Virus record (IMG/VR): IMGVR_UViG_3300034198_007771
Coordinates: 767-64,766 of that record
Strand: one strand, 5' to 3'
DNA: 64,000 nucleotides
DNA from: a virus
Lineage: Duplodnaviria; Caudoviricetes
Shown here: positions 5,784 to 32,410 of the stretch, piece by piece
How positions within the stretch are numbered: position 1 is the first letter of the stretch
Layout of the letters: every line of letters starts with the position of its first letter
Notes under the pieces: generated by a model
Told to the model about the DNA's origin: nothing
The model's input: the letters and a program-made list of their open reading frames with translations, nothing else
Databases searched by the model: none
Made by a program: the position numbers and the translations under genes

Positions 5784-8582
5784 CTACGGTAAGCCCAGTA
5801 CGATAGGGCCTTTGTCGGTTTTCTTGTTCTGCTTGAAAATTCCGTCTAAGAATTTGCGGTCAGCGTCCCACATTGCCTGACCGGGGTCCAAGGCAGCAGG
5901 CCCGGGCGGTGGGGCGAGGAATGTGGGCTCGAACCCCGCATAATATTCCATGCAGTTCCCCGCGACCATCGCCTTCAGATTCCTACGCACAATCAGAGTG
6001 GAGTTCGGTACTGTGGCACAATACACCTTCCCCTCGTATTGACTCGTAGTCACGATGGAATCCTTTGCTCCCGTTACCAAGGACGCTACGCCTTTCCGGA
6101 GTGTTGGCCAGTACTGGTCGCGAGACTGGCCTGTTCTACCTTCTATGCTCCAGTACTGGCACTTCTTCGTAAGGATGGTCGTGTGCCTTCCCAACCTGAA
6201 ATACAACTCTTGGATGTCGGACGCCAGTGCAACACTGGTCGTGGCACACCGATCGATACCCTGATTGACCCATCCGTCCCCGGCTAGGTACCCTTTCAAA
6301 AACGCGGTTATCACTTTCGCACTTGACGTTTTTATCCACTGAGGGACAACCCGATTCCACGATCGGTCCCCTAGGTTCATGTCCTCCATCAAGTGCCATA
6401 GCTGCTTGCTCGAACAGATGTAGTTGTTCCCGTCTCTCAGGAAGTGCCAAGGTATCCTGTCCAACAGCGATACGAGTTTGATGACCCCTTCAGGCTTGAC
6501 CTGGCTGATGCCGATGCGGTACCCAACGCCGGGCATTCGTATAACCTTGTCACGGGAACCTTCTGCAACCCACCAACCCAGCAACTCTGCGTAGTCACAG
6601 GTGTCGATTGTTCGGGTGTAGTTCCTGCACTTCGGCGGGACCGGCAGGTCCATCGTGTCTGGCGACTCGACCGACCATGGGTTGTTCGGGCACAACTTCA
6701 ACAAGTTCTGTTCGGGTACGTCCTCGGCGTTTACGAAGTGCCATTTGTCACGGTTAAGCTGGCGGTACACCACCATACGATGGGTAGGTGTAACCGTACA
6801 GTCAACAGTCCGTGACTTGAACGTAATCATCGGGCCGCTGTAATCCTTCACGATCCAGCGTGACGGTGTCTGAAACTCCAGTTGGTCTTGCGAGTTTACC
6901 GTGGCGAGACGCTCGGTGTGGTCAAGGTCCGGCCACAGTTTCCAGCCGCGGTCGGTAAGCACTTCCATCGAAGGGTGGAAGCAATCGAGCACGTCATGGG
7001 CCTGCCCTTTGGCGATCTTGTCCTGGATAGCGTCTCGTGAAACTTCCTTGAGCGTCTCTTCGAACTCTTTGACCAGTGCGGGGCACATGTGGGGGACGAT
7101 ACGGAGTCGTGGCCTACCGCAGTTCCGACCACGAAGGAGTGCTCTCAGCTTCAATGACCGTGTGATCCAAACGGTCTCACCGCGAAGGAATAGGTCTCCC
7201 GTGACTTGGCATCGCAAGCCATACGTTCGGAATGGCTTTGAGTATTCTTCAAACACTGTGTGTCCCGCCCCCATGCTCGTCTGGTTGCCCGCCTTCGAGT
7301 CGCCGATGAATCGAGCATATCGTCGGCCGGGGTCTGCAGCTACGACACGCTTCGCCATCTCTAAAGCGTTGAGCCGCGGCACAGCCATCTCGCGAAACAC
7401 GATATGGTATGGTTCACCCTCGTCCCAAAACTCTTTTGGCGGTATCGCTACCCAAAGCATCGCCGGTCTCGTAGTACCTGGGTCGAGGATAAGATCGACG
7501 CACCAATCGCTCGGTACGTTCCAGTTCAGCTTCCGCATCGCCTCTGTGACCTTGTCGTTCAGCGGGCTGTTATCTCCGTAGTTGACAACGTGAAAGTTCT
7601 TGTCGAACTCTGGGTACGCCACGACAGAGCCGGTTGCAAACTCCCCGTAGTATCGAGCTTTGATTTCATCCTCGCTCCACCCCTCGAATCGCTTACGTCG
7701 TTCTTCATCATCCATGAACGGGTTCTTCATGGCGTTGAATACGAAGTTCTCCACGTCTTGGTGCGTGCGTACGCCACGGGACACTTCATCCCTTTGGTTG
7801 ACCGCTCGCTTCCACATCTGCACGAGGGCCGCACATGTCATGTCTGGCCACGCTGTCCAGTACAACCGGCCCTTTCTGTCTGACAGTCGACTCTGCCATT
7901 CCGCCAAGTGACTGGAGTACTTGATATCCTCGTCCAGCCATATGAGATTTACGGGATCGCCCCTTTTCACGTCGCCACTGGACGCAAAGCCGTAGCACTT
8001 AGACCCGTCTTTCATCTCGATACTTGTGAACTCGTGAGCGGCTTTGTTCTGCCACACCTCAAGCGTTATCTCGGATGGCGGGATCAAAGGCGGTGCCGGA
8101 AACCTTTCGTCAACCGGAATTTTATCGTCGCCCTCGATACGGCCGGGTTGCCATGCCCGCCACAGACCGGTCTGCTTGTCACGTACCATGTCGAACGCAC
8201 CCGGACGACACAGCAACCGGTATAGCGTCTGGCCGATATGAGCTAGGTTCATCCCGATCAGCCAAGCGGTTATCGGCCGCTTCTGCCAACCCGGTTCTCG
8301 CATGTCGTGCTTGGACCCGTCGGCAAAAGTAACTGGTTTGTTACGCAGGTACGAAGCTACCATCGCGGCAACAATTACGGACTTGCCCGATCGTGGAGCC
8401 CCTTGAACAAGTACCTCGGATGCCCTGCTAGTAACAACTGCTTCCTGGTATATGGTCGGGCGGAAGATCTCCAGGGCGTCGAGCTTGGCCTTAGCCACCT
8501 TTGCCGCGGCGGCTACCCCTTGTTGGAGGTCCCGGCGAGACATGAGCGATTGACGGATCTTGTTCGCTAGTTCTTCTGACAT
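5784..8582 (-). CDS. terL: Terminase large subunit, intein-containing
   Basis: Walker A GAPRSGKS, Walker B LIWLDED, RNase H-like ILDPG and HDVLD|CMEY. Confidence 0.93.
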   Translation of the reverse strand: MSEELANKIRQSLMSRRDLQQGVAAAAKVAKAKLDALEIFRPTIYQEAVVTSRASEVLVQGAPRSGKSVIVAAMVASYLRNKPVTFADGSKHDMREPGWQKRPITAWLIGMNLAHIGQTLYRLLCRPGAFDMVRDKQTGLWRAWQPGRIEGDDKIPVDERFPAPPLIPPSEITLEVWQNKAAHEFTSIEMKDGSKCYGFASSGDVKRGDPVNLIWLDEDIKYSSHLAEWQSRLSDRKGRLYWTAWPDMTCAALVQMWKRAVNQRDEVSRGVRTHQDVENFVFNAMKNPFMDDEERRKRFEGWSEDEIKARYYGEFATGSVVAYPEFDKNFHVVNYGDNSPLNDKVTEAMRKLNWNVPSDWCVDLILDPGTTRPAMLWVAIPPKEFWDEGEPYHIVFREMAVPRLNALEMAKRVVAADPGRRYARFIGDSKAGNQTSMGAGHTVFEEYSKPFRTYGLRCQVTGDLFLRGETVWITRSLKLRALLRGRNCGRPRLRIVPHMCPALVKEFEETLKEVSRDAIQDKIAKGQAHDVLDCFHPSMEVLTDRGWKLWPDLDHTERLATVNSQDQLEFQTPSRWIVKDYSGPMITFKSRTVDCTVTPTHRMVVYRQLNRDKWHFVNAEDVPEQNLLKLCPNNPWSVESPDTMDLPVPPKCRNYTRTIDTCDYAELLGWWVAEGSRDKVIRMPGVGYRIGISQVKPEGVIKLVSLLDRIPWHFLRDGNNYICSSKQLWHLMEDMNLGDRSWNRVVPQWIKTSSAKVITAFLKGYLAGDGWVNQGIDRCATTSVALASDIQELYFRLGRHTTILTKKCQYWSIEGRTGQSRDQYWPTLRKGVASLVTGAKDSIVTTSQYEGKVYCATVPNSTLIVRRNLKAMVAGNCMEYYAGFEPTFLAPPPGPAALDPGQAMWDADRKFLDGIFKQNKKTDKGPIVLGLP
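5955..6983 (-). mobile_element. Intein with LAGLIDADG homing endonuclease (343 aa) in TerL nuclease domain
   Basis: N-terminal CFHPSMEVLTDRGWK, block B VTPTHRM, LLGWWVAEG and FLKGYLAGDG motifs, C-terminal VYCATVPNSTLIVRR...AGN followed by +1 Cys. Confidence 0.95.
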
Positions 8583-9427
8583 TTTCTCTCCTCCCGGGCG
8601 AGTCTGCTCGCGTGTTGTTTCGCCCTGTATGCTGGGTCGGCCCAGCGGGCTTTAGCCTCAGCTTTGTAGTCCCTACGTGCCGCGGCTTCTTTCAGCTTAG
8701 CTATCGTTTCCGGCGATCTGACAGCCCCGGTATGCCTTGCGGATATCGCGGCCTTGTGCTCGGCGGACATGTTGCCCTTCTTCACTTCGGACAAGTGTCT
8801 TTTTGTTTCTTCAGAGTGCTTGAACCCCTTGCTCGCTTTAGAAATCCTAGCCTTCGTTTCGTCGCTGTGCTTCCGACCACGTTGGCCTGCGGACATCTTC
8901 TGACGAGTCTCCTCCGATATGGGTCCTCTACGTGCTGAGGCTTCCCGCATCTTCTGCCTTGTTTCCTCGCTGTTAGTCTTGGCTCTCAGCTTAGCAATCG
9001 TCTCCGGTTTGGCTTTCTTGCCGGTACGAGTCTGAGACATCTTGCGTCGGGTCTCCTCAGACGCTTTCTTCCCACGGTTTGCTTCTGCCAGTTTACGCTT
9101 TGCGGACTCGCTCAACTTCATGCCACGGTTAGACTCCGCGATACTCCGCACGTTGAATCCCTTGTTGGGGTCGAAAGACTTGTAGTAGTCGAGGTACACC
9201 TGCTCTTGAGCAACACAATGCTCGGGCAGACAGACTTCGGCTACTGAGAAAGAGAACGCTTCTTCTCCGTACAGGTTCCAAGCGGCTTGGATGTGCTGGT
9301 TCGGGTGACAACCTCTCCGTAGTTTTCGCAGGTGCTGGGTCCATCGTTTGGTGAGACTCACCGCCGCACTGCCTACGTACCGCTTTCCGTTTGCGGAGCA
9401 GAGTATGACGTATACGCCGGTATTCAC
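8567..9427 (-). CDS. GIY-YIG homing endonuclease with NUMOD3 repeats
   Basis: GVYVI...YVGSA, conserved R/H/E residues, many SEETRRKMS-type repeats. Confidence 0.92.
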   Translation of the reverse strand: MNTGVYVILCSANGKRYVGSAAVSLTKRWTQHLRKLRRGCHPNQHIQAAWNLYGEEAFSFSVAEVCLPEHCVAQEQVYLDYYKSFDPNKGFNVRSIAESNRGMKLSESAKRKLAEANRGKKASEETRRKMSQTRTGKKAKPETIAKLRAKTNSEETRQKMREASARRGPISEETRQKMSAGQRGRKHSDETKARISKASKGFKHSEETKRHLSEVKKGNMSAEHKAAISARHTGAVRSPETIAKLKEAAARRDYKAEAKARWADPAYRAKQHASRLAREERKCQKN

Positions 9428-10893
9428 AAAATACCTCCGTACTGATTCTGCCGAGCCAAGGCGTTGTAGGCCGCACCGGCTGTGAGGGGCCTGAGAACGC
9501 CCGGTACAGCTTGTGGCCGCATCGGGTTCATCGTCGACACAAGCGGTGAGTCACCGGCTGATGCACGGAACGCTGGCTGCTCGACCTGTTGTACCAGCGT
9601 GGTTGGGTTGATCGGCACACGCTCGCCGTCGATGGCACGAATACGCATCTGGTCGATCAGGTCTTGGTCCCACAACACCCTATCGCCTGCGAAGCCTTTT
9701 ATCGACGAAGGTGTCATGGCCCCTGGGTAGCCAGTAGCTTGTAAGTCTTCAATGCCTGCAAGCCTCGGGTCCACACCAAGCATCTGCTCGGCCGATCCTT
9801 GGGTTGTCCAGTCCGCAAGGGGCACGTTCGGCATGTCTAGTTCGTACTGAACTGCATCTGGAAACCCCTGACGTTCGAGCAGACTCCGTACGTACTTCGG
9901 TGTACGTGGGTCGTCAGACACGTACATGGCTGGACCATAGGTCTTACCGGTCTGCCCAGTGCCAACTTCATTCATGTCAAACATGCCGTACGGATGTTCT
10001 GGCGTAGCTGAAGCGGACCAGTCCCTGCCGACATGCTGTACCCGTTCAAGTTCGGGAGTGTACCCAAGCAGTTTCGGACTTTGCTCAGCGACACTAGCCG
10101 TAGCCGGTGCAACCTCATCCGCCGTCGGACGGTACACCCAGTTACTATCTACCTGCTCGTAACCCATGTGCTGCAGCTTCGCCGCAAAGTCCGGGCTGAT
10201 CACTTCTTCCGCTACGATAGGCTTTCCGAACCCTCTGAGGTAGTTGTGCAGAGACCGATACGCACCACTGCCTGGCTGTCTCGCCTCAATACTCGCCACA
10301 GTTATCGCATCGTCGATCTTCTCTTTACCCAATTGTCGAGCACCGCGTCTCATGTAGAGACGATCGAACATGTCGTTCTCCGGTACATCGAACGACGTTC
10401 TGCCCCCGATGAGGTCCTCTGGTAACGGGCCGGATAGTTTGGCGTCCAGCGTGGACCGTACCATGTCATCGAGGGGGTTCACCATCTCATCCGCCTGCCG
10501 TGCCAACACTCGCGGGTTGACGTAGCTGTACTTCCCGGCCTCGCGTAACGCATTCACAGCGTTGGCCTGTCGTGCTGCCTTACCACCTTTGATGGCACGC
10601 AGCACAGCCCCACCGCTGACGAAGTTCATCGGGTCCAGTGCTACCTCAGCACCGAAGCCAAGCACGTCCTTGACACCCTCCATCGGGTCGGACAGCCAGC
10701 CGGACATACCGGTCTCTTTGTTCGCACCGAGTAATGGCCGTAACACGTCACGCCCGGACGCCCGGTTGTCGCCGGAGAACGGTGTCATCCACTGGTCGAA
10801 CGGGTTCTGCCCCGTCAACAGGTCTCGTACAGACGAGCCAGGCAGGTCGAGTAGGTTGCCAGCGTAGCCGAGGAGTTCAAGCGGGTTTACCAT
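9424..10893 (-). CDS. Putative virion-internal polyvalent protein (shared N-domain + GNAT-like + ART-like)
   Basis: N-terminal ~80 aa closely similar to the 1573-aa protein; SIEARQPGSGAY...LQHMGY GNAT-like; FDMNEVGTGQTGKTYGPAMYVSDDP resembles ADP-ribosyltransferase domains of polyvalent proteins. Confidence 0.55.
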   Translation of the reverse strand: MVNPLELLGYAGNLLDLPGSSVRDLLTGQNPFDQWMTPFSGDNRASGRDVLRPLLGANKETGMSGWLSDPMEGVKDVLGFGAEVALDPMNFVSGGAVLRAIKGGKAARQANAVNALREAGKYSYVNPRVLARQADEMVNPLDDMVRSTLDAKLSGPLPEDLIGGRTSFDVPENDMFDRLYMRRGARQLGKEKIDDAITVASIEARQPGSGAYRSLHNYLRGFGKPIVAEEVISPDFAAKLQHMGYEQVDSNWVYRPTADEVAPATASVAEQSPKLLGYTPELERVQHVGRDWSASATPEHPYGMFDMNEVGTGQTGKTYGPAMYVSDDPRTPKYVRSLLERQGFPDAVQYELDMPNVPLADWTTQGSAEQMLGVDPRLAGIEDLQATGYPGAMTPSSIKGFAGDRVLWDQDLIDQMRIRAIDGERVPINPTTLVQQVEQPAFRASAGDSPLVSTMNPMRPQAVPGVLRPLTAGAAYNALARQNQYGGIL

Positions 10894-11721: not shown

Positions 11722-12246
11722 TCAAGGCTTCACGGCTGCGAATGGCGACCGGAAGTAGACTCGTGCAAAATTGCCGGACGTGGCTGCTTCATTGGCTTTG
11801 CCGCAGTGACCGATCGGGTTCGTGCCCGCGGTACCATCGACGAAGAGTCCGTTGGCTGCAGTCTGTACTTCGGCGTTCTGGGTGATGCCGCCAGCGGCTG
11901 CCTTGACTTCACAAGGACCCTGGATGATCAGCCAGAAGTACGCACCGTCTGGAATCGTGCCAGAGACCCAAGGGTCAGCGACACCGTCACAGATGGCGTT
12001 GGCACCGGACAGGGCTCCGACTTCTTTGCCGATCTTTGCGGTCTTATAGGTATAGCCGAGGCTGGGCGTTACGACTCCACCGAGACCGTTCTTCACGAGC
12101 ACCGCGTAGACTGGCGTGCCAGACACGACGTAGGGTGCGTTCGGGTCCGTCCGATCCTGATCCTGGAAGCAAGCAATCTGCCCCAGTGCCCGATCGTCGG
12201 AGATTACGTTGTACTCGCCCAGAGGCTGTTGGATGGTAATAGTCAT
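11722..12246 (-). CDS. Capsid decoration / cement protein
   Basis: Gly/Ala-rich beta protein directly after MCP; GAYFWLIIQGPC motif; start moved to ATG 12246. Confidence 0.65.
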   Translation of the reverse strand: MTITIQQPLGEYNVISDDRALGQIACFQDQDRTDPNAPYVVSGTPVYAVLVKNGLGGVVTPSLGYTYKTAKIGKEVGALSGANAICDGVADPWVSGTIPDGAYFWLIIQGPCEVKAAAGGITQNAEVQTAANGLFVDGTAGTNPIGHCGKANEAATSGNFARVYFRSPFAAVKP

Positions 12247-12271
12247 CTGAAACTCCGTAGAGATTGAATTC

Positions 12272-12301
12272 GAAAGAAAGGAGGCCCGGCCGAAGCCGGG
12301 C
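12272..12301 (-). terminator. Rho-independent terminator after MCP
   Basis: GCCCGGC-TTCG-GCCGGGC hairpin followed by CTCCTTTCTTTC. Confidence 0.7.
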
Positions 12302-12312
12302 GTCACTTATGA

Positions 12313-13458
12313 TCAGGCAGTCTCTGACACGAAGCGGCAGAGGTACTTTGGCAGGAACTTGAAGTTGCCGTAGGTGCTGATGTAGTACAGGTACCCAACG
12401 TGTGGGATGCTGTACTCAGGACCCATGACACCGTAGATGTCGTTGTGCAGGAAGAACGCTTCCACGTACTGCGGCAGGTACATGTAGGCTTCACCGACAG
12501 GGATGGCGTAGTCCATCATGTAGACCATACCGTCGACCTGGAGGGTCTCGCCAGGGAAGCCGAGGTCGCCGTCGCGGAACGGCATGATCTGTCGGTTGTT
12601 CTGGCGGAAGCTGTCCTTGAAGTCTGTGAACATTTCAGACGCCATGCAGACGTTCGGCTGAGCACCAACCATTGACTGACCACCGCGGTGCAGCATTGCT
12701 GTCTGAGCGTAGCTGGTTGCAGCGATGGCGTTCGTTGCCCAGTCGGTTGCACCAGTGCCCCAACCAGTTGCAGCGTAGTTGACGATCACTGGTGAGGTGC
12801 CATCGTACTCGCTTGAGCCCTGACCGAAAGGCCAGTCCTTTGCGAGGTTAGCGTTCGGCTTTGTGGTCATGCCGCTTGACCAGGTTCCACCGAGGTTACC
12901 CAGTACGCAGGACTGACCAGCGTAAGTGCCGTCCGGCTGAGCGATCAAGTCTGCAGCACCGCAAGTGCTTGCAGCGTATGACAGCGGGGTCTTGATACCC
13001 GCAAAGTCGTAGGCATTGGCCGCTACGTTGCCGTCTTTCCAGTAAGCGTTGCAGAGCCGCTCCTGCATCGCCTGAGCAAGTTCTTTGCTCTTGCGAGAGT
13101 AGCGGTCACTGATCTGCTCAGGAGCACCCTGAGCCTGCAGGAACTCCTGCTCTGGCAGGAAGTCCGACCCGCGGTAGCCTTTGATACCGATGTAGAACTG
13201 AATGTCCGTGTCGGTGTTCACGAACTCGATCGGCTGGTTGTCGACGCTTGGCAGCACCTGTGGTTGCTTGACACGAGCGTTCCAGACCTGGCTGTGAGAC
13301 CGGGCGTTGAACGTCATCGAGCCGTACTTACGCAGGTTGTAGAAGGTCAGATAGTTTCGGACAGTGAGGTCCGATACTTCTTTCCAGTAACGTGGTGCCA
13401 AGTCGCGGACAGAGTTGATGTGCCCTGTGACTGATGGCGGGACTAGACTTTGAGGCAT
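12313..13458 (-). CDS. Major capsid protein
   Basis: 381 aa between scaffold and decoration genes; strong codon bias; followed by terminator. Confidence 0.85.
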   Translation of the reverse strand: MPQSLVPPSVTGHINSVRDLAPRYWKEVSDLTVRNYLTFYNLRKYGSMTFNARSHSQVWNARVKQPQVLPSVDNQPIEFVNTDTDIQFYIGIKGYRGSDFLPEQEFLQAQGAPEQISDRYSRKSKELAQAMQERLCNAYWKDGNVAANAYDFAGIKTPLSYAASTCGAADLIAQPDGTYAGQSCVLGNLGGTWSSGMTTKPNANLAKDWPFGQGSSEYDGTSPVIVNYAATGWGTGATDWATNAIAATSYAQTAMLHRGGQSMVGAQPNVCMASEMFTDFKDSFRQNNRQIMPFRDGDLGFPGETLQVDGMVYMMDYAIPVGEAYMYLPQYVEAFFLHNDIYGVMGPEYSIPHVGYLYYISTYGNFKFLPKYLCRFVSETA

Positions 13459-13478: not shown

Positions 13479-14570
13479 TCACTGCAGGCCGACGGCTTGC
13501 AGTCCCGCAAAAGTTGGGAACCCCTGGTTGTCCAGTGGCACTCCCCGCTGCTGCGGAGGTACTGAGTTATTGAGAACTGTACCCGCGGCGTTGAAGCTCG
13601 GGTCAGACACAGGAGGGCGTTGAAGGGCCTGCTGTAACCACGGCTGTGGGGGCTGAGGTGGTGCTGCAGGCTGTGTGCTCTGAAGATATGCCGAGGCTGC
13701 CATGCTGGCGATCTGATGGGCTGCTGTTGGGTCGGTCACTCCCGAGTTCGCTGCCAGGTCCCACGCATCGCGGTAGGCGGCTCCGGCTTGGGTAGGTACT
13801 CGTGTCCCAGCAGGATCTGTCGTCCACAGTTTGGCCTCGTGTTCTTTGATCCATGTTTCGTGTGGCTTCGGAGTCATCGCCGAGAGTTGCTGCTCAAGAC
13901 GCTGGTTTCGCTCAAGCACCTGCTTCATCTGCTCCTGCAGAGGGCTCAGGGCCTGCTCGATTGTCTCTTTACCGTACTTCGAGATGAACGCTCTTGGGTC
14001 TGCGAGTTCAGCCTGGCGAGCTTGTGCTTCCAAAGCCTGGTTGTTCAACTGCTGTGCAACCTGTGTTGCCAGCGGGTTGGTCGCTATCCACTGTCCGTTC
14101 TGCAAAGCCAGCCAGTTGTTCTGCTGGAAGACCGTGGCCATCTTGGTCAGGTCGTCCGCAGGCACAGCCGGTGTTGCTGGCGTTGCCGGTTGAACAGGTG
14201 CCGCTGGTGCGACGGGTGGTCGTTGGCGGTACTGTTCGAGTTCTGTTGCAGTCTGCTCCAAGGCACCATACATGGCATCAAAGAGTTCTCGCTCTGACTT
14301 GAACTGGCCGACTGGGATTCGTCCCATCCGTTCAAGTTCGGCGATGCTGAACTGCTGTTGTGTTGGTTGAGCCGGAGGTTGTGCGGCTGGTACAGGTGTC
14401 GCAGGAGGAGTATTAAAACCCGACCCACCCGGCTGTGACACCGGGGTGGGTGGGTTCGTATCTCCCCCAGCGGAGCGTCCCTGGAAATTTGGTTGTGCTG
14501 GAGGGGGTGTCTGGGCCGCTTGCAGGTCTGCAAACGACGGTAGTGCTGGGATGGTCATTTGGTACTCCAT
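13479..14570 (-). CDS. Capsid scaffolding protein (Pro/Gln-rich, coiled coil)
   Basis: Immediately upstream of MCP; low complexity and coiled coil. Confidence 0.7.
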   Translation of the reverse strand: MEYQMTIPALPSFADLQAAQTPPPAQPNFQGRSAGGDTNPPTPVSQPGGSGFNTPPATPVPAAQPPAQPTQQQFSIAELERMGRIPVGQFKSERELFDAMYGALEQTATELEQYRQRPPVAPAAPVQPATPATPAVPADDLTKMATVFQQNNWLALQNGQWIATNPLATQVAQQLNNQALEAQARQAELADPRAFISKYGKETIEQALSPLQEQMKQVLERNQRLEQQLSAMTPKPHETWIKEHEAKLWTTDPAGTRVPTQAGAAYRDAWDLAANSGVTDPTAAHQIASMAASAYLQSTQPAAPPQPPQPWLQQALQRPPVSDPSFNAAGTVLNNSVPPQQRGVPLDNQGFPTFAGLQAVGLQ

Positions 14571-14682
14571 TGATCTGGGGGATACACAGTCTCGATAATG
14601 AGAATATGTTCCGGCTGGACTTGCAAGACCAATGAATGTACAAATACGCCAGTTTCGGATTCTTCGGTTTTAGGAGGCAGTC

Positions 14683-14925
14683 ATGGATTCAGAAGAGAAC
14701 CCGCTGGAGTTCATCACAACCGCCCAGATGATTGACGAGTTGGAGCGGCGTACGACAGGGCTACTCATTGCTTCGATGGGTGACCACGTTGAGGGGACAG
14801 ACATCTACAACGTGGAGTACCGCGGGTCTATCGGGACCTGCATCGGGCTGGCTCGCATTGCTTCGCTAAGGCTTGAAGCGAAGTTCATGGACTGCGAGAT
14901 CGAGGGTGATGAAGACGATGAGTGA
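14683..14925 (+). CDS. Hypothetical protein, paralog of 966..1193
   Basis: AGGAGG RBS; shared IDEL.RR motif. Confidence 0.75.
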   Translation: MDSEENPLEFITTAQMIDELERRTTGLLIASMGDHVEGTDIYNVEYRGSIGTCIGLARIASLRLEAKFMDCEIEGDEDDE

Positions 14926-15142
14926 GAAGCCTTACATGACGCCGAAGGAGGTCGTCGCGGCTTTACTCAGGCAGGGCATCGAGGTTACGGATGACACCGT
15001 GCGTAACTGGACGACGCTGGGGCTGCAAAACAAGAAAAGCCCTGGGCTTCGTTATCGGCTCAGGGCTATCCGTATTGGCGGGCGTATCCACGTGGAACGG
15101 GCGGACCTTGTCAGGTGGGTTCCGCTGTTGAGGGAGTGTTGA
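14918..15142 (+). CDS. Excisionase-like / MerR-type HTH DNA-binding protein
   Basis: MTPKEV...VTDDTVRNW...LRAIRIGGRIHV pattern. Confidence 0.75.
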   Translation: MSEKPYMTPKEVVAALLRQGIEVTDDTVRNWTTLGLQNKKSPGLRYRLRAIRIGGRIHVERADLVRWVPLLREC

Positions 15143-15338
15143 AGTGGGCAATACGTTCCCCTAGGATATCCGCGTACGTGCTCATGACGGACAGTTGGAT
15201 TCTCAACCTCGACTGCTCCCCGTTGTCCAGCTTCTGGAAACTGTAGCACCCGAGGTAGTTCAGCAGAGCTTTGATTTTTTCATCAAGGTCTCGTTTCTCC
15301 TGTACGACCCTCTGCTGGTACGGCGGTAGATCAATCAC
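15111..15338 (-). CDS. crAss001_48-like small helical protein
   Basis: PYQQRVVQEKRDLDEKI...QLSVMSTYADILGERI pattern; GTG start overlaps recombinase stop. Confidence 0.7.
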   Translation of the reverse strand: MIDLPPYQQRVVQEKRDLDEKIKALLNYLGCYSFQKLDNGEQSRLRIQLSVMSTYADILGERIAHFNTPSTAEPT

Positions 15339-16882
15339 GTACTTACCCTCCTCGCGAGATCTGTCATGCCCTGTGGCACCGCACAATGCGATGCAATCGT
15401 TGTCAGGGTTGACTTGTCACGCAGCCTGCCGGGCAGTGTCTTAGCCACGGCAAGGAATGCCTCCATACGACGCATCGTACGCACGATGGTCAGAATATTC
15501 ATCGGATAGATCACGTCATGCTTGAAGTTCTTCAGCATGATAATCAACCTGAATCGTCGCTCGCTGAACTCGTCTTCCTGCATCTTCTTCAGCTTGGCCG
15601 CGTACATCTTCGCTGGCATGCCGAACTCGCCTGTCACAGGTGGCAGGCCCTTCAGCTTGAGCCACTTGTTCGAGATGACTCGCACAGCCGTTCGCTGGTC
15701 GCGGTAGTTCTTGCCCGTCATGTACAACTCAAGGTACATGTGCATCCGCTCCTCCGCGTTGAAGATCGCATGGAAAGCGTAGTGCTTGAGCCCATTGCTT
15801 CCGGGCGGACGCAAGAACTTCGGCATGAACTCAGCCCGGGCCTTCGCACTGACAGCACACGCTTGCATCTTTCCATGCTTGGTTGACCGGCCGATCTCTG
15901 CCGACTCAAGCTCAGCAAACATAGTCATCATCTGAACTAGGGTCTTGCCGAACGGGGTGTCCGTCCTGAACCCACCTTCGATAGCCATGATCGCTGCACC
16001 GATGTCGTCAATCTGTCGCACGACCCGAGCAGAGTCGTGCAGCGATCGGAACATACGGTCTGGACGCAGCGTGACGATCAAGTCCCCCGGCTGCAGATCC
16101 GCCATCAGCCTCGACCCGGCTTTACGTTTGGCCAGTGGTGTGGTAAAGGCCGATGCCCCCTCGTCGCGATACCACACCACTGGCTTGCCAGAAAACTCTG
16201 GCGGCATCATTCGCTCGATTGCAGCGACCTGGTTCTCGACAGTCTGATCGTTCGTGCTGACTCGCACGTACGCCCGGATCGTCTTGATCGAGTCAAGCTG
16301 TTTCTGCTCTCGACCTGCAGCGACCTGGCGGATGATCTCGGCCATGTCTTTCGTGCTGCACTCCATGACCGGCCGCGGAATCACAGGCCGGGGCTTCTCG
16401 TTAGATACCTTCGACTTACTGATCGTCTTGGCCTCTTTGATCCGGGCACCCATCAGCTCGCTCTTTAGCTGGGCCATGATGCCCAGCATGTAGAGCATGG
16501 CTTTGCCGTTGGCCGTGTTAGTGTTTAGAGCCGGGTAGTCTGTGAAGATCACAGAGATGCCATGCTCGACCCACGTCTCAAGCGTTGTGACGATGTCTTT
16601 CATGCGACGGAACAGTCGGTGTGTGGCTGTGGCCACGACAGTGTCGCCGGGCTTGAGAGCCCCGAGCATAGCCGCCCCACCCGGTCTGTTGCTCAGCGTC
16701 TTCTTGTACGCTGACTTACCGCCGTCGATGAATACACCCGGCAGGTCACAGTTCGTCTCGCGGCCAAGCGGTAGCTGGTACCGCTGGCAGTATTCAAGAC
16801 AGGCTTTTACCTGGGCGTCGACGGAGTAACCTGTGACGTACTGGTCGAGTGTGGACACGCGGGCGTAGATGAAGGTGCTCAT
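15335..16882 (-). CDS. Serine recombinase with two tandem resolvase-type catalytic domains
   Basis: Domain 1 YARVST...FIDGGKSA...RPG...HRLFR; domain 2 YVRVST...YRDEGASA...DRMFR; each followed by an E-helix. Confidence 0.9.
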   Translation of the reverse strand: MSTFIYARVSTLDQYVTGYSVDAQVKACLEYCQRYQLPLGRETNCDLPGVFIDGGKSAYKKTLSNRPGGAAMLGALKPGDTVVATATHRLFRRMKDIVTTLETWVEHGISVIFTDYPALNTNTANGKAMLYMLGIMAQLKSELMGARIKEAKTISKSKVSNEKPRPVIPRPVMECSTKDMAEIIRQVAAGREQKQLDSIKTIRAYVRVSTNDQTVENQVAAIERMMPPEFSGKPVVWYRDEGASAFTTPLAKRKAGSRLMADLQPGDLIVTLRPDRMFRSLHDSARVVRQIDDIGAAIMAIEGGFRTDTPFGKTLVQMMTMFAELESAEIGRSTKHGKMQACAVSAKARAEFMPKFLRPPGSNGLKHYAFHAIFNAEERMHMYLELYMTGKNYRDQRTAVRVISNKWLKLKGLPPVTGEFGMPAKMYAAKLKKMQEDEFSERRFRLIIMLKNFKHDVIYPMNILTIVRTMRRMEAFLAVAKTLPGRLRDKSTLTTIASHCAVPQGMTDLARRVST

Positions 16883-17073
16883 CGTTGTCTCGCTTCCAGC
16901 ATGGCGTCGGCCATCTTGTAGCACATCCTGGCGTCGTCTTCGTAGTATGTGTCTCGGCCAATCCAGCTCATGCTGGCTAGTGCTTTAGCGGCGAAGTAGT
17001 CCCGGAGGGTCATACCCCGCTGCCCGTTTACGTCTGCATCGTTAGAAACTGGAAACGCTCGTTCTTCGTTCAT
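16879..17073 (-). CDS. Conserved small phage protein (GMTLRDYFAAKA family)
   Basis: AFP...GMTLRDYFAAKAL...YKMADAMLEAR motif. Confidence 0.85.
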   Translation of the reverse strand: MNEERAFPVSNDADVNGQRGMTLRDYFAAKALASMSWIGRDTYYEDDARMCYKMADAMLEARQR

Positions 17074-17556: not shown

Positions 17557-17751
17557 TCAGTCCTCCCAGCTAAGTCGGATACGTTTTGCTTCACACCGAA
17601 GTTCTACGGCCCGGCAGTGGTGGAACTTCGCGCTGTCGTACAGGCCCATCGTCCCGGCCAAGTCCTCCTTGTGCTCGTGCCACTCGGCTAGTGCGTCAAG
17701 AATGTCTGGCGTGTCCTCACACACGTCTTGTTCTATGTCGGTCAGCTTCAT
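17557..17751 (-). CDS. Hypothetical protein
   Basis: GAGGT RBS, coupled to primase stop. Confidence 0.65.
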   Translation of the reverse strand: MKLTDIEQDVCEDTPDILDALAEWHEHKEDLAGTMGLYDSAKFHHCRAVELRCEAKRIRLSWED

Positions 17752-19985
17752 TCTACCTCTCCTAAAAATTTGTACCGCTCGACTTTCTGTGTCTCGCTCG
17801 GCGGCAATTGTACGATATGGCCTTCCCGGAGGAACAGGTCGACCTCCTGCCGAGCCTCGACTTTCTTCAGCCTGAGAATGGTGTAGTAGTCACGCAGCGT
17901 CCATTCCTCAGTCACACGCTCGACACGACGGCGACGTTCCTTCAGGTAATCGTCCATCTTCTTCGTGACAGACTCCTCCCGCTTCAGCATGTCCCCACTG
18001 ACCGATGCAAAGGCTGCCTCGACAATGTGGTCGACGTACTTCTGCTTCTTCAGCCAGCCCCACTCCATCAGGTCGATCGAGCCCTGTAGAATGTGTGGCG
18101 GTATCCAGCCGTGCTGCTGAGTCGGTATGCTGTTTGCCATCCAGAACGCCGGGTCACAGGCACACCACAGCATGTTCAATCCCTGGGCGAACTTCAAAGC
18201 GATCTCTGCATGACGCACGACATCGGCCCGATGTGGGTGGTCCTCTGGCCATTGAGCCATAACGATCGGTGACTTCTTCGTCTCAGCGTACCCTTTCCAC
18301 AAATGCCTTGCCTGATCGTCCAGCGTGAGCGTCAGAGGTAGCTCGACCTGACCGGTGGCACTAATCAACTGGGATAGACTCGGTGACCCGATCGTGGGCT
18401 TGATCTCACCCAGTCGTTGACAGATCTCATACCACGTCTTCAGGAACTCGTTGTGAGCGGCGAGGGCCTCCTCGCTCTCGCGTCTGGGTACTTCACCGAT
18501 AGGGTAAATGAACATTCGTTGGAGCAGTCCGTCCAGACAGTCGTTCATCGGCATCTGGTTTAGGTTGACCTGCTGGATCGCTGCACTCACCACGAGGTGT
18601 GGGTTCCGTACAACGGTTCTGCCTTTCTGCAGGACCCGCACGACAGTGTCTCCTGAGAAACACTTGTGGTAGAGACTGTTGTCGCTCTGCCCTGTTGTGT
18701 TGTACTTGTTGAACATCTTGAAGAAGTCTTTGCCCTCGGTGAACTGAAGCAGGACTCCTCTTGGGTACTTGGCCAGCAGCGAGACCAACGCCTCGGGGCT
18801 GCTGTCCGTGGCCATAGCGTCGGAGTGGGAGGTCGGACCAAGCAAGACCTTCATGGTCTTGCTCTTCCCCGATCCGGAACCTCCCACTCCAAACGTGTAT
18901 AGCTGCCCGCCGAGCGTGTCGTGGTTCACGCTCGCTCGTACTCGCACCGATTGTCCCATCTGGAACATCGCTGTCGTCAGGATCGTCATCAGCCACAGGT
19001 TACGTGGGTACCCTGCCAGCTTCGCCTGTTGACTCGCTTCCTCAATCAGCGGTGGGAAGATGTGACTTGGTATCTCCGGGCAGTCGCCCGTGGCTGCCAC
19101 GTACTGGAGTTTGCCAACGGCCTCGTGGGCTGCCTCAGCCACGACCTGCATATCAACAGCAGCGATGAGTTCTCGCCCGTGGTTGACAGGCCGACGGAGG
19201 TTGTTGAACAGGTTCTTGACTTCGGTCTCACCACGATCGGGGTCGGAGTACGTACCGACTCGCTGGGCCATGTATCGGCTAAGCTCGACGCAGTCCTCTG
19301 TCGGCAACTGCCAGTCGCAGTAGAGGCTCTTGCTCCATGCCAGCAGGAACTCGTGTCGGTTACCAACCTGCGGCAAGTACCCGTCTTCTTCGAGCCCTAC
19401 CTCAACCTCTTTGGCGTCTTGTCCTTTGGGCCTGACGTTCGCCAGGAACCACTGGATGATGACCTCCGGCATTGGCGCCGGGCCGACTTCCCAAGGGGCA
19501 CAGCCGGGGAGCCATTCGTAATGTTCACCTGTGTCCGGGTGGAGCGATGGTGGGCAGATCGAGTAGAAGTCTTTGTCCGATGAAGCGAGGCGGCATTCAA
19601 GGCCCTTGGCTTTCGGGTTGTTCTTGTTGAGCGGGGCGAGGCGGTCTGTCCACTGGAAGATACGGTGGACACCACGGCGGGATTTGTAGGCAAGGGTCCG
19701 GCAGTTGGCCTCGGCCATGAGCCCTTCGATAACGGCTGTGCCCTCATCGGTGTCTGGCTCTACGTCGCAGATGCCCGATGTAGGGCCGAAGGTCATGGCT
19801 ACGTTGAACGGGCCTGCAGGAACTTTCTTCACGAACTCGTTGATGTCGTTCGTGGCGTTCTCTGTCCAGTAGCCCACTGGCTTCTTCGAGCCGTACTCGG
19901 CTACGAAGATCTTAATTCCGTGGCGGCACAGATACGCCGCTGTCAGTACCGCGGCTTTGCGATACTGCTGCTCATCAAAGGACAT
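17748..19985 (-). CDS. Bifunctional primase/polymerase (Prim-Pol) fused to DUF3987/YfjI-like P-loop helicase
   Basis: N-terminal KKP, DVE, SRRGVH, CPPSLHPDTG; PriCT-like GNRH; Walker A GGSGSGKS. Confidence 0.88.
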   Translation of the reverse strand: MSFDEQQYRKAAVLTAAYLCRHGIKIFVAEYGSKKPVGYWTENATNDINEFVKKVPAGPFNVAMTFGPTSGICDVEPDTDEGTAVIEGLMAEANCRTLAYKSRRGVHRIFQWTDRLAPLNKNNPKAKGLECRLASSDKDFYSICPPSLHPDTGEHYEWLPGCAPWEVGPAPMPEVIIQWFLANVRPKGQDAKEVEVGLEEDGYLPQVGNRHEFLLAWSKSLYCDWQLPTEDCVELSRYMAQRVGTYSDPDRGETEVKNLFNNLRRPVNHGRELIAAVDMQVVAEAAHEAVGKLQYVAATGDCPEIPSHIFPPLIEEASQQAKLAGYPRNLWLMTILTTAMFQMGQSVRVRASVNHDTLGGQLYTFGVGGSGSGKSKTMKVLLGPTSHSDAMATDSSPEALVSLLAKYPRGVLLQFTEGKDFFKMFNKYNTTGQSDNSLYHKCFSGDTVVRVLQKGRTVVRNPHLVVSAAIQQVNLNQMPMNDCLDGLLQRMFIYPIGEVPRRESEEALAAHNEFLKTWYEICQRLGEIKPTIGSPSLSQLISATGQVELPLTLTLDDQARHLWKGYAETKKSPIVMAQWPEDHPHRADVVRHAEIALKFAQGLNMLWCACDPAFWMANSIPTQQHGWIPPHILQGSIDLMEWGWLKKQKYVDHIVEAAFASVSGDMLKREESVTKKMDDYLKERRRRVERVTEEWTLRDYYTILRLKKVEARQEVDLFLREGHIVQLPPSETQKVERYKFLGEVE

Positions 19986-21804: not shown

Positions 21805-22037
21805 GACTTGACCAGATCGATGTACTACCAGACGGGCGTATCGTGCTCGTTCTGCACGAGGGTGCTTTGCCTCGAGGCATGTCGACCCACGAGGCCAAAC
21901 AGTTCGGGCATGACCGGACGTTCGGGGCTTTGCTTGACGAACTGAAGCAGATCCAGAAAGACGACTGTCCGGACAAGGCGTATCTTCTTAATCTTGCCGT
22001 ACGATCAGTACGAGCTTCACTGGAGGTGTTGGGATGA
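21801..22037 (+). CDS. Hypothetical protein
   Basis: Coupled ORF. Confidence 0.65.
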   Translation: MRLDQIDVLPDGRIVLVLHEGALPRGMSTHEAKQFGHDRTFGALLDELKQIQKDDCPDKAYLLNLAVRSVRASLEVLG

Positions 22038-22657
22038 GTAACCCGTTTAAGGTTGGTGACGACTTTGTGTTCAAAGGCCCCGCCATGCCCTACCACAAAA
22101 CGTGGGGGGTGACTGTAGGCAAGGCATACAGAGTTTTCCGCGTCTATAATACTGACCCGGCAACCGTGGAGATTCAGGACGATCTGGGCAATCTAAGTAC
22201 GTTCGACGTAGCGTGGAGCGTTTCTCAAGAGGCCCCAGCAGTCAAACCCTCGAACCCCAAAGACGTGATCGGATCAACCAAGCCGCCGCTTCACAACGTC
22301 CCGTGCGGCCCTCTCTATCAGATCGGTGCTGCGATGCTCAGCGGTGCGTGTAAGTACGGCAGCCACAACTGGCGATCCATCGGCGTACGCTCTGATGTGT
22401 ACTACGACGCGGTGCAGAGGCACATCATGTCCTGGTGGGAAGGTGAGACTCTCGATCCTGAGAGTGGAGCACCACATCTGGCCCACGTCGCTGCCTGCTG
22501 TATCATACTGCTTGACGCAGAGGCTGCAGGTAAGCTGACAGACAACCGCCCACCTGTCGTGGGTAACCCTTCACAAGCTGTGCAGGAGCTTGTCACGTCG
22601 ATCCTGCAGAAGTACCCAAACCCGGTTGAGCCTTTTACGGAGAAGAACAATGCTTGA
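22034..22657 (+). CDS. dATP/dGTP diphosphohydrolase domain protein (DUF5664-like) with N-terminal SH3-like module
   Basis: NPKDVIGSTK, GACKYGSHNWR, RHIMSWWEGE..DPESG.PHLAH. Confidence 0.9.
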   Translation: MSNPFKVGDDFVFKGPAMPYHKTWGVTVGKAYRVFRVYNTDPATVEIQDDLGNLSTFDVAWSVSQEAPAVKPSNPKDVIGSTKPPLHNVPCGPLYQIGAAMLSGACKYGSHNWRSIGVRSDVYYDAVQRHIMSWWEGETLDPESGAPHLAHVAACCIILLDAEAAGKLTDNRPPVVGNPSQAVQELVTSILQKYPNPVEPFTEKNNA

Positions 22658-29497: not shown

Positions 29498-29545
29498 TGT
29501 AAAACCCTTTCAATCGTCGTGTGAAATGTGAAACCAAAAGTCTAA

Positions 29546-29561
29546 CGGTCGAAACCTGCTA
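29546..29561 (-). promoter_or_regulatory. TAGCAGGT-family motif, copy L2
   Basis: TAGCAGGTTTCGACCG on - strand, just after the stop of the sigma-like gene. Confidence 0.7.
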
Positions 29562-29563
29562 TC

Positions 29564-30109
29564 CTACTGCCATCGTACTGTGAGGACTGGCACAGGCTTG
29601 ACCTGTTCAGCCTGTTTCGCGTTCTCTGCTCGCATGTGCTGGAGATACGCTGCCTCACGTTCTGCGGCTCTAGCTTCGTCTCTGAGGGCCTTTGCTGCTT
29701 TTGCGGCATCATCTGAGGCGTAGGCTACTGTCTGCATTCCTGAGCGACGGGAGATGATTCTGCGAAGCTCTTTCGTCAGCCATCGTTCGGGGTTTGGCAG
29801 ACGTTTGCCCTGCTGCTCGCATGAAACAGCGTATTGCCAGTTTCGGAGAGTCAACTCCTGCCGAATGTCCTCGCGGTCGTGGGCGGGGATGTCTGCCATG
29901 AGTTCACGGGCTTCATCCTGCCAGAGTAACCATAGACAAAGCTCCGCATACCCCTCGCAGCGTACTGGCAGGGCGGAGCGTGCTGGCATTGGGACTGCCT
30001 CGATTTGCGGCGGGTCGTCTCGTTCGGGAGTTCGTTCGCCGATCCATACTGCCGACACAAAACAGCACTGGAAGTCTCTGTAGTCGAGTTCCACGTCTAA
30101 CATGTTCAA
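29564..30109 (-). CDS. Sigma-70/ECF region-2-like protein lacking region 4
   Basis: HDREDIRQELTLRNWQ...NPERWLTKELRRII matches the ECF sigma2 pattern DAEDxxQExxxxxW...WLxxIxRN; C-terminus is an Ala-rich helix. Confidence 0.55.
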   Translation of the reverse strand: MNMLDVELDYRDFQCCFVSAVWIGERTPERDDPPQIEAVPMPARSALPVRCEGYAELCLWLLWQDEARELMADIPAHDREDIRQELTLRNWQYAVSCEQQGKRLPNPERWLTKELRRIISRRSGMQTVAYASDDAAKAAKALRDEARAAEREAAYLQHMRAENAKQAEQVKPVPVLTVRWQ

Positions 30110-30766: not shown

Positions 30767-31003
30767 GTGGCAAAGCGAATTGCATTCCTGATCACGGAGA
30801 ACGGCGTAGATGGCCGTGCTCCAACAGTCATCGTTGCAGCATTCTGGGACGAAGAGGCCCGTGACAAGGCATTTGATGCCGACAAGAACAAAGCGTACTA
30901 CGGGAAAGACGATAGGATCGTGGACATACCGAAACAACGTGAGAAGGCGATGGCCCGGCTGGACCCGATCGATATGATGGTCTTGGGGCTCACAAGAGGA
31001 TAG
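30767..31003 (+). CDS. Hypothetical early protein
   Basis: GGAGGTGA RBS, GTG start; its stop is the TAG of motif R2. Confidence 0.75.
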   Translation: MAKRIAFLITENGVDGRAPTVIVAAFWDEEARDKAFDADKNKAYYGKDDRIVDIPKQREKAMARLDPIDMMVLGLTRG

Positions 31004-31077
31004 CAGGTCCGGCCCGTGATTGTCCGACAGAGGCCCACTGCGGTGGGCTTCATTCAGGCAATTCCGCCGTTGGAGGA
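31001..31077 (+). repeat. Motif + UGCG hairpin + RBS unit R2
   Basis: TAGCAGGTCCGGCCCG; ATTGTC..GA..GAGGCCCAC-TGCG-GTGGGCTTC..TC..GGCAAT; TTGGAGGA. Confidence 0.9.
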
Positions 31078-31306: not shown

Positions 31307-31705
31307 ATGAAAAACATCTGCGGTGTGGATGTCATTGAGTCTATCGATGACTTTCTGCATGACGACGACACTGCCAACAGGTTCTACGAATGGCAGTGTC
31401 AGAAGGCGAATGACTTTATCAACGAGCCGGAGCGGGCTGCACGTTGCCATGACGCTGCGGCGGATGGTTGTGATGGGTCATACCATTGGGAAGTCATTGA
31501 TGACTTTCGTGAGTTCGGTAGTGAACTACTACAGGAATCGTGGGGCCTGATTGTCCACGAGTTGGAGGATCAGGAGCAACCAGCGACGATATGGCGTGGT
31601 GCCGAAGTTGGCCACGATGGGTGCGTTGAGGCGTTTAACAAATGTTGTGACGATCTCGAAGAATGGCATCGGCAGAACGGGACATACGAAGAACAGTGCG
31701 GATAG
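31307..31705 (+). CDS. Acidic early protein
   Basis: GAGGTG RBS; its stop is the TAG of motif R3. Confidence 0.75.
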   Translation: MKNICGVDVIESIDDFLHDDDTANRFYEWQCQKANDFINEPERAARCHDAAADGCDGSYHWEVIDDFREFGSELLQESWGLIVHELEDQEQPATIWRGAEVGHDGCVEAFNKCCDDLEEWHRQNGTYEEQCG

Positions 31706-31787
31706 CAGGTCCGGCCCAGTAGAAGTGCTGGATGGGCAGTCACTGCGGTGACCGCCTTTCGTGTACTTCACTTTTAACTTTGGAGGA
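31703..31787 (+). repeat. Motif + UGCG hairpin + RBS unit R3
   Basis: TAGCAGGTCCGGCCCA; GAAGTGC..GA..GGGCAGTCAC-TGCG-GTGACCGCCT..TCGT-GTACTTC; TTTGGAGG. Confidence 0.9.
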
Positions 31788-32332: not shown

Positions 32333-32410
32333 CAGGTCCAGCCCGATAGAGTGTTCGACCGAGGGGCTTTGCGAAGCCTCTCACTCGTGTACTCTGTTTG
32401 TTTTTGGAGG
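32330..32410 (+). repeat. Motif + UGCG hairpin + RBS unit R4
   Basis: TAGCAGGTCCAGCCCG; AGAGTGT-TCGACC-GAGGGGCTT-TGCG-AAGCCTCTC-ACTCGT-GTACTCT; TTTGGAGG. Confidence 0.9.

Follow-up and report, generated by a model that had tools for sequence, protein, structure and literature searches.

By the textbook scheme, serine recombinases carry one catalytic domain per chain, bind symmetric half-sites as dimers, and recombine DNA within a rotating tetramer. Cutting the four strands takes four serines, the interfaces that hold the dimer and the tetramer together pass through the E-helices, and subunits rotate to exchange the strands. Here we describe a phage gene in which two such catalytic domains lie in a single open reading frame (ORF). 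The gene is located in a 64,000-nt stretch of DNA (hereafter the window), which comprises bases 767-64766 of the 64,766-bp record IMGVR_UViG_3300034198_007771 (Duplodnaviria; Caudoviricetes). All coordinates count from the first letter of the window.

The recombinase ORF runs from 15335 to 16924 on the minus strand and would encode 529 amino acids (aa) if read from a GTG codon. The likely start is the ATG at 16882, which gives a protein of 515 aa, designated P0001. This codon is preferred because relatives start at the same M-S-T-x-I-Y-A-R-V-S-T and because it overlaps the stop codon of the upstream gene as ATGA. The gene and its parts are as follows.

15335..16882, minus strand: tandem-domain serine recombinase gene, 515 aa plus stop codon (P0001), matching PF00239 over two stretches
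16427..16882, minus strand: catalytic domain 1, residues 1-152, with Y6, R8, S10 (codon 16853-16855), D53, R66, H88, R89 and R92
16286..16426, minus strand: inter-domain linker, residues 153-199, poorly conserved, with a helix at 180-197 in the model and disorder at 159-178
15848..16285, minus strand: catalytic domain 2, residues 200-345, with Y205, R207, S209 (codon 16256-16258), D240, R253, D275, R276, R279 and E326
15338..15847, minus strand: basic C-terminal domain, residues 346-515, predicted to be mostly helical, with a well-predicted core at 376-482

Pfam matched PF00239 (Resolvase, N-terminal domain) to two stretches of the protein with an E-value of 1.3e-54 and 184.7 bits, against a gathering cut-off of 23.3. 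PHROG 125 (DNA invertase), the best PHROG match, and PHROG 95 (integrase) likewise each matched two stretches. These catalytic domains place the protein in the serine recombinase superfamily. A preliminary description of this DNA had read two full catalytic domains in the one ORF, and the Pfam scan bears this out. The domain coordinates it gave were correct within a few codons, and the motifs it named are all found in the translation, namely YARVS (S10), HRLFR (H88, R89, R92), YVRVS (S209) and DRMFR (D275, R276, R279).

Catalytic domains and linker

Domain 2 aligns with gamma-delta resolvase (E 6.3e-09), and its residues S209, D240, R253, D275, R276, R279 and E326 fall on S10, D36, R45, D67, R68, R71 and E118 of that enzyme. 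The two catalytic domains of P0001 are 29% identical to each other (E 1e-14), with YARVS lying on YVRVS, D53 on D240, and R66 on R253. Domain 1 aligns with the Gin invertase (E 2.7e-05), and here H88-R89-x-x-R92 (HRLFR) is aligned to the D-R-x-x-R motif of Gin (DRLGR). A mutagenesis study of Tn3 resolvase gives Y6, R8, S10, D36, R68 and R71 as crucial and D67 and E118 as not essential (PMC2794168). The equivalents of the six crucial residues are Y6, R8, S10, D53, R89 and R92 in domain 1 and Y205, R207, S209, D240, R276 and R279 in domain 2. All of them are invariant or at least 90% conserved in both domains, among 39 clade members as well as among 117 distant tandem proteins. Each domain looks competent for catalysis and has a nucleophilic serine to itself, S10 in the first and S209 in the second.

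An AlphaFold2 model of the protein, with a mean predicted local distance difference test score (pLDDT) of 78.5 and a predicted template modeling score (pTM) of 0.50, gives each domain a beta-alpha core and a long terminal helix. The E-helix that the preliminary description had read in each domain is present in this prediction, at residues 124-157 in domain 1 and 310-344 in domain 2. The best matches of the whole model in the PDB, found with Foldseek, were gamma-delta resolvase, Sin, Gin and the catalytic domain of TP901-1, at E values of about 1e-6. A homodimer prediction with two copies of residues 1-345 scored 0.02, which is evidence neither way.

Between the two domains the model is disordered at residues 159-178, where pLDDT falls below 50. 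Sequences of the clade share on average 58% pairwise identity in domain 1 and 55% in domain 2, against 21% in the linker, while the C-terminal core stands at 36%. Linker length across the family has a median of 44 aa and a range of 28-76. A linker of about 45 aa that is weakly conserved and partly disordered is as expected of a passive tether running from the end of an E-helix to the next domain.

Distribution, conservation and origin of the family

A search of 5.8 billion proteins for relatives of P0001 gave 74 matches. The best 57 of these (P0002-P0058) come from several public sources and are 38-97% identical to the query; 56 of them have lengths of 496-531 aa and align over 94% or more of the query, and the remaining one, P0055, is a 400-aa form cut at the N-terminus. 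Invariant columns in an alignment of 39 sequences (A1) include R89, R92, Y205, R207, S209, D275, R276, R279 and E326, while Y6, R8 and S10 are at least 90% conserved. A HMMER search of 1.84 billion cluster representatives returned 5,358 matches at E of 0.001 or below, 412 at 1e-10 or below and 79 at 1e-30 or below. The best 150 matches are mostly 450-590 aa long and match the query over both domains.

To count architectures, our own profiles of domain 1, domain 2 and the tail were run on 216 proteins, made up of the query, the 74 relatives and 141 HMMER matches. Two catalytic domains were found in 202 of the 216, down to about 22% identity; 13 have a single catalytic domain (large or small serine recombinases and fragments), and one is a tail fragment. 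The R-x-S nucleophile motif is present in domain 2 of every tandem protein (202/202) and in domain 1 of 179, and the other 23 begin downstream of the domain 1 motif and look cut or mis-started. Among 117 members with 22-41% identity, R66, R89, R92, Y205, R207, S209, S244, R253, D267 and R276 are invariant, and Y6, R8, S10, D53, S57, D80, D275, R279 and E326 are at least 90% conserved. All 96 members scanned with Pfam gave PF00239 only, with no match to PF07508, PF13408 or a helix-turn-helix (HTH) family. The tail profile matched 80 of the 202 tandem proteins, so that the tail either diverges faster than the catalytic domains or differs by subfamily. Two distant members, P0110 and P0096, gave no match when scanned against viral contigs.

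The preliminary description had allowed for three outcomes that would undo it: two separate genes, an assembly chimera, or a domain that is degenerate in most homologs. None of the three was borne out. The homologs show one gene, with the same architecture in the 56 full-length relatives and the 202 tandem proteins, and in the phage clade it occupies the same place in 19 of 19 loci. Both active sites are kept, the two domains are conserved to the same degree within the clade, and neither is degenerate. Among proteins shorter than 283 aa, a search turned up just an ordinary small resolvase and two fragments, whose contigs measure 959 and 2,746 nt, and it thus gave no sign of split genes. An identical 64,709-nt contig is present in one sequencing run, which may be the source of this DNA and is therefore not independent. 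Contig pieces of relatives from other runs cover parts of the gene; among the pieces listed, none bridges the domain junction.

A tree was built in a quick IQ-TREE run from 45 first and 45 second domains, taken from every fourth of the 179 complete tandem proteins, together with 9 single-domain hits; the other 134 complete proteins and the 23 cut ones were left out. One branch, with a Shimodaira-Hasegawa-like approximate likelihood ratio test (SH-aLRT) value of 92, has all 45 second domains on the same side, and sub-clades of first domains are mirrored among the second domains. This pattern fits one ancient duplication or fusion followed by co-divergence, although the outgroup is too small to separate a duplication from a fusion.

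Public sources label the relatives 'DNA invertase Pin-like', which are automatic labels for the catalytic domain. No natural serine recombinase with two catalytic domains was found described in the open full-text literature, a search that did not extend to subscription journals or InterPro architecture tables. One candidate for such a description (10.1101/2024.01.22.576637) turned out to be irrelevant. The architecture is common to hundreds of unstudied relatives and is undescribed as far as the searched literature goes.

The C-terminal domain

Residues 346-515 have a net charge of +17, an isoelectric point of 10.4 and a single Cys, and residues 351-515, the last 165 aa of the protein, had no match in Pfam, PHROG or NCBIfam. 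These results uphold the preliminary description of a basic tail with neither a resolvase HTH nor a zinc ribbon. Folded alone from 10 sequences, the domain gave a model that is mainly helical with three short strands, with a pLDDT of 77.5 overall and above 85 across most of fragment residues 30-120.

Comparisons of this fold found no convincing match. The best E value from Foldseek was 1.1 against the PDB and again 1.1 against BFVD, and VIA-align against 48,161 chains reached a best Z of 4.6 over the last three helices only. A profile search of PDB sequences likewise found nothing convincing, the best match being falcilysin at E 0.085, and hhalign gave a probability of 0.9% for an alignment of the domain with five large serine recombinase (LSR) sequences. 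A feature search of the ESM Atlas ranked clusters bearing PF07508 first (0.90 and 0.89), by the tool's own figures a lead only, and this lead was not confirmed, since the fold, PDB-profile and hhalign searches gave nothing convincing. A very distant kinship of the C-terminal domain to the LSR recombinase domain (PF07508) is possible. Given its basic charge, DNA binding is the natural guess for its function, and the domain presumably binds DNA.

Genomic setting

The source record is classed as complete with direct terminal repeats, and the terminal repeat of 87 bp fits a circular assembly. The 64.7-kb genome is that of a complete free phage, not a prophage, and belongs to an uncultured clade. 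The mapping of prophage junctions, a check named in the preliminary description, is therefore not applicable to it. We found 19 related viral loci on contigs of up to 68 kb. The recombinase gene, a convergent small HTH gene, a scaffold gene and a capsid gene stand in the same order in all 19, and a Prim-Pol homolog is present in 16; in the other three its region possibly lies beyond the stretch examined. Because the recombinase gene occupies the same place in 19 of 19 loci, it is a core gene of the clade.

By Pfam and PHROG matches the genome encodes a portal protein, a large terminase interrupted by a LAGLIDADG element, and capsid-like and scaffold-like proteins. It also encodes a Prim-Pol/DUF3987 protein, a family A DNA polymerase, an SNF2 helicase, a DUF2800 exonuclease, an Enc34/Gp2.5-type single-strand-binding protein and a VRR-NUC protein. 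There are no tRNA genes in the genome. None of the 142 matching records from cultured phages covers 80% or more of the recombinase protein, the capsid protein had no match among cultured phages, and the DNA polymerase is at most 33% identical to that of any cultured phage. The recombinase is thus a core gene of an uncultured aquatic phage clade whose lifestyle cannot be read from its other genes.

Comparison with known recombinases

The small serine recombinases, such as gamma-delta and Tn3 resolvase, Sin, and the invertases Gin and Hin, provide the best sequence and structure matches to P0001, which shares with them the catalytic fold, the crucial residues and the long E-helix. These enzymes have one catalytic domain followed by an HTH of about 45 aa, total about 185-200 aa, and act as dimers on symmetric sites, whereas P0001 has two catalytic domains in 515 aa and an unrelated tail of 170 aa. 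No HTH family was matched in P0001 or in 96 relatives, and the architecture of a small resolvase or invertase is thus absent from these proteins.

The large serine recombinases (Bxb1, PhiC31, TP901-1 and A118, together with CcrA/B and XisF) resemble P0001 in their length of about 500 aa and in being encoded by phages. The catalytic domains of P0001 weakly match the CcrB, CcrC and XisF models and the structures of Bxb1 and TP901-1, and P0001, as is the case for the large enzymes, has a small neighboring gene that may encode an accessory factor. Their catalytic domain is followed by PF07508 and by a zinc ribbon and coiled coil (PF13408), while P0001 has in their place a second catalytic domain and a seemingly unrelated tail. 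PF07508 had no Pfam match in P0001 or in any of 96 family members, nor did PF13408, and the single Cys in residues 346-515 likewise leaves no zinc ribbon to be recognized. Scores against the NCBIfam large-recombinase models fall far below the cut-off (55 bits against 900).

The IS607-family serine transposases share with P0001 a non-canonical domain order, and a synapse has been proposed for them in which some subunits do not bind a specific site. They consist of an N-terminal MerR-like HTH and then one catalytic domain (about 190 aa), whereas the catalytic motif of P0001 begins at residue 6. The NCBIfam IS607 model scored 26.8 bits against a cut-off of 110, and the IS607 architecture was not found. 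The nearest functional analogy lies in the single-chain LAGLIDADG homing endonucleases, and it is one of architecture only, without kinship, as fold and chemistry are unrelated. In that family, single-chain pseudo-dimers with asymmetric sites evolved through duplication and fusion from homodimers whose sites are symmetric. Unlike those enzymes, a pseudo-dimer of P0001 would, as we propose, still have to pair with a second chain for a four-strand exchange.

Proposed mechanism and role

From the architecture, its conservation, the catalytic residues kept in both domains, the strong selection on both active sites and the core-gene status of the gene, we infer how the protein may work. On balance we favor an intact phage gene for a single-chain, two-headed serine recombinase, in which one chain corresponds to a dimer and two chains to a synapse. 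One chain would stand in for the dimer bound at a crossover site. Two chains would then synapse and bring together four serines, as in a normal tetramer, and the four strands would be cut, exchanged through subunit rotation and resealed. With one DNA-binding domain for two unlike catalytic domains (29% identity), the site would be expected to be asymmetric and to be read in one orientation. A fused pseudo-heterodimer that recognizes asymmetric sites or imposes directionality, as the preliminary description had suggested, is plausible.

Most likely the enzyme rearranges DNA of the phage itself in a site-specific reaction. The leading guess for its role, to which we would give about a third of the weight, is integration and excision, with the HTH protein as an accessory factor. 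We rank multimer resolution or genome circularization second, a role outside recombination third, and inversion last. More tentatively, P0001 may represent a widespread natural family of pseudo-dimers that form a two-chain, four-serine synapse, with an asymmetric site read by a domain of new fold and with polarity, and perhaps directionality, built into the protein.

The textbook scheme of one domain per chain is here set against a large natural family whose members join two unlike but fully equipped catalytic domains in one chain. If the proposal is true, polarity would lie in the protein rather than in a central dinucleotide or in accessory factors. It raises the questions of how subunit rotation copes with tethered subunits, how a site is recognized with a single DNA-binding domain, and whether asymmetry of the protein sets the direction of the reaction. 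Recombinase engineering has long faced the design problem of forcing defined heterodimers onto genomic targets that are asymmetric, and such a protein would be a natural template for engineered recombinases. There is a real chance that the system is mechanistically distinctive enough to interest specialists and recombinase engineers.

Searches for a substrate, an integrated copy and a host

Several results weigh against a two-chain recombinase of this kind. No recombination site, product or junction was found. When peptide patterns of the recombinase were run on 185,579 species genomes, 15 pattern matches were obtained, none of which was a relative, and no integrated copy was seen. Capsid-protein patterns run on the same genomes gave 102 pattern matches and one relative (L022, 2465-3562, 36% identity), on a 4-kb contig binned with a Planctomycetaceae metagenome-assembled genome (MAG). 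This was the sole match in a bacterial genome for any of the phage's genes, and it is a weak hint of the host. That MAG had no relative of the recombinase, and neither did 401 genomes of its phylum at E of 1e-15 or below. A search of metagenome contigs gave 282 relatives, of which 80 were kept. The full-length relatives among them lie on contigs of at most 77 kb, and the longest contigs of the clusters looked up are at most 69 kb; two longer contigs that were listed (104 kb and 233 kb) carry ordinary single-domain matches with about 30% identity. These genome scans use short peptide patterns, and the hosts are possibly poorly sampled, but the null scans lower the odds of lysogeny. Among assembled contigs from sequencing runs, which cannot show rare forms, there was no host junction. 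A repeat search of the genome found no pair suggesting an invertible or excisable segment, and the 25 inverted repeat pairs present (18-29 nt, 75-94% complementary) lie mostly inside coding regions and far apart.

The remaining points on this side concern the phage and the protein itself. The phage carries its own full replication module, and no repressor, second integrase, partition gene or other lysogeny gene was recognized among 41 ORFs searched against PHROGs and 67 further ORFs searched with Pfam. The preliminary description had likewise recognized no CI-like repressor, and this holds in the same searches, but it counts as weak evidence, since most ORFs of the phage match nothing. In this clade, domain 1 has a His at the position equivalent to D67, which is Asp in other serine recombinases. 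This is the one clear departure, and it falls at a position given as non-essential for Tn3 resolvase in the mutagenesis study (PMC2794168). Domain 1 also has Lys and Ser where gamma-delta resolvase has E118 and R119, the mapping of the E-helix being a reading of the alignment. The low pTM of the model leaves the mutual placement of the domains uncertain. Lastly, one relative of 315 aa (P0065), from a cluster of 4 member sequences with a longest contig of 8,972 nt, seems to be made up of a linker-like start followed by domain 2 and the tail, and to lack domain 1. The tail can therefore accompany a single catalytic domain, and P0065 is either a natural single-domain form or the product of a mis-called start.

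Alternative explanations

The same mechanism could serve multimer resolution or genome circularization at one site, possibly in a plasmid-like carrier state. The Cre/loxP system resolves and circularizes the P1 genome in this manner. We consider this a possible reading but a somewhat doubtful one. It agrees with the lack of an integrated copy in the scans made, with the assembly of the genome as a circle with an 87-bp overlap of its ends, with the phage's own replication module, and with the unique conserved non-coding element near the gene. That element resembles a divergent promoter region at least as much, however, and the exonuclease and the Gp2.5/Enc34-type annealing protein could circularize the genome by homologous recombination. 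Partition genes, too, were not recognized.

Alternatively, only one of the two domains may cut, the other acting as an architectural or regulatory subunit, in which case the working complex would contain four chains and eight domains. Resolvase subunits bound at res accessory sites never cleave. In favor of this reading, domain 1 in this clade has the His at the D67-equivalent position and no Glu equivalent to E118. Its residue before the R-x-x-R motif varies across the family (H in 65, D in 65, S in 20 and E in 10 of the 202 tandem proteins, the rest having another residue or no motif), and P0065 appears to amount to domain 2 and the tail alone. Against it, the six residues crucial in Tn3 resolvase are kept in both domains across the 117 distant members, and domain 1 is slightly better conserved than domain 2. 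If one serine were never used, it should have drifted. D67 itself is dispensable in Tn3 resolvase (PMC2794168). We regard a single cutting domain as unlikely.

It is a good deal less probable that the protein has left site-specific recombination altogether, for instance as a nuclease-like or topoisomerase-like factor acting on host or replicating DNA. Such a role would suit a core gene of a clade without sign of lysogeny and a C-terminal domain unlike the known DNA-binding domains of recombinases. The complete active sites, and both predicted E-helices that serve synapsis and rotation, are kept all the same, and we know of no precedent for such a role.

It is very improbable that the enzyme is a DNA invertase turning over part of the phage genome in the way that Gin and Cin flip tail-fiber genes. 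The names point that way, in that PHROG 125 'DNA invertase' is the top PHROG match and relatives are annotated 'DNA invertase Pin-like', but these are automatic labels of the catalytic domain, the protein lacks the HTH_7 tail, and no invertase-type inverted repeat pair flanks any segment near the gene. The last alternative, that the double domain is an artefact of a chimeric assembly or of a sequencing error joining two genes, is already refuted: nothing was found in its favor, and against it stand 56 full-length relatives with 38-97% identity from several sources, the same single ORF in 19 viral loci, the tandem form in 202 of 216 proteins, and a search below 283 aa that gave two fragments and one ordinary small resolvase.

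Neighboring genes and the conserved non-coding element

The genes and elements around the recombinase gene, which lies in a conserved block, are listed here.

17748..19985, minus strand: Prim-Pol/DUF3987 primase-helicase gene, at the upstream end of the conserved block that holds the recombinase gene
16879..17073, minus strand: 64-aa ORF upstream of the recombinase gene, its stop overlapping the recombinase ATG as ATGA; matches phrog_2201 (E 2.2e-15), function unknown
15111..15338, minus strand: crAss001_48-like small gene, PF21825 at E 9.8e-17, its GTG start overlapping the recombinase stop
14918..15142, plus strand: gene for a small HTH protein of 74 aa, convergent with the recombinase gene and present in 19 of 19 loci (alignment A7)
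14571..14672, no strand assigned: conserved non-coding element of about 100 bp, between the rightward HTH and leftward scaffold/capsid operons

The preliminary description had a convergent Xis-like HTH gene next to the recombinase gene. The gene is real, convergent and conserved in all 19 loci, but its match to PF12728 (HTH_17) scores 15.8 bits, below the gathering cut-off of 27. Five of 10 relatives of this protein match HTH_17 at E of 0.1 or below, the best at 0.0026. The protein may be the directionality factor of the recombinase, a suggestion drawn from the conserved adjacency and the sub-threshold HTH_17 match. Its gene and the structural operon are read in opposite directions, away from the strongly conserved non-coding element between them, so the protein could equally be a regulator of late genes.

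The crAss001_48-like gene and an 80-aa ORF at 14683-14925 are found only in this phage and in the related locus L002. The slot between the recombinase stop and the end of the HTH gene varies and is about 25 bp in L003. Two variable cargo slots adjoin the recombinase/HTH pair, at 14558-14614 and 15126-15335. In contigs of relatives from other sequencing runs, the first slot holds 637 other letters and the second holds 206 or 376.

The non-coding element at 14571-14672 is strikingly conserved among the 8 clade members aligned, even though proteins of the clade are only about 50% identical. It is unique in the genome, a single copy in the window being returned by each of two motif searches. On the minus strand it reads as two CCGAA direct repeats one helical turn apart, followed by TTTGTA, TTGCAAG, ATTCTCAT and CCCCCAGA, just ahead of the ribosome-binding site of the scaffold gene. 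The rightward operon has a promoter-like site at 14570-14599 (plus strand) that overlaps the element. The element may hold a divergent late promoter together with the binding region of a regulator, in this case the HTH protein, or it may be a candidate recombination site. In L002, the closest relative, an insertion of about 600 nt interrupts the element ahead of the scaffold gene (12180-12935), and copies of element motifs are present on both flanks of the insertion.

Other features of the genome

The terminase gene (5784-8582, minus strand) encodes 932 aa with a LAGLIDADG_3 match at residues 757-807. The terminase homolog of most relatives covers only about 63% of this protein, while L003 and L004 have the long form, and the insert looks like an intein or an inserted homing element. 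Just downstream, at 8567-9427 on the minus strand, lies a GIY-YIG/NUMOD3 homing endonuclease gene that is present in L002, and in L015 at 35% identity, but in no other related locus. A separate HNH endonuclease gene is located at 48646-49281.

The 18-nt motif GGATAGCAGGTCCGGCCC occurs three times at gene boundaries in a rightward block, at 30998-31015, 31700-31717 and 32327-32344, with an inverted copy at 29545-29565, and is probably a regulatory or terminator element. The ORF at 22034-22657 on the plus strand contains the N-terminal domain of a dATP/dGTP diphosphohydrolase (PF18909, E 1.6e-27), and its PHROG labels are both endolysin/RNA-polymerase inhibitor and pyrophosphohydrolase. It could hint at manipulation of the nucleotide pool or at modified bases. 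A 743-aa ORF at 56502-58733 (minus strand) combines a mannosyltransferase-like domain with an FkbM methyltransferase domain.

A 1,574-aa ORF at 50265-54989 (minus strand) has no family match. Three co-linear direct repeats of 29-55 nt, 79-84% identical, are shared between 10631-10802 and 54607-54781, and they link the 5' parts of the ORF at 9424-10893 and of this 1,574-aa ORF, which suggests an N-terminal module common to two structural proteins.

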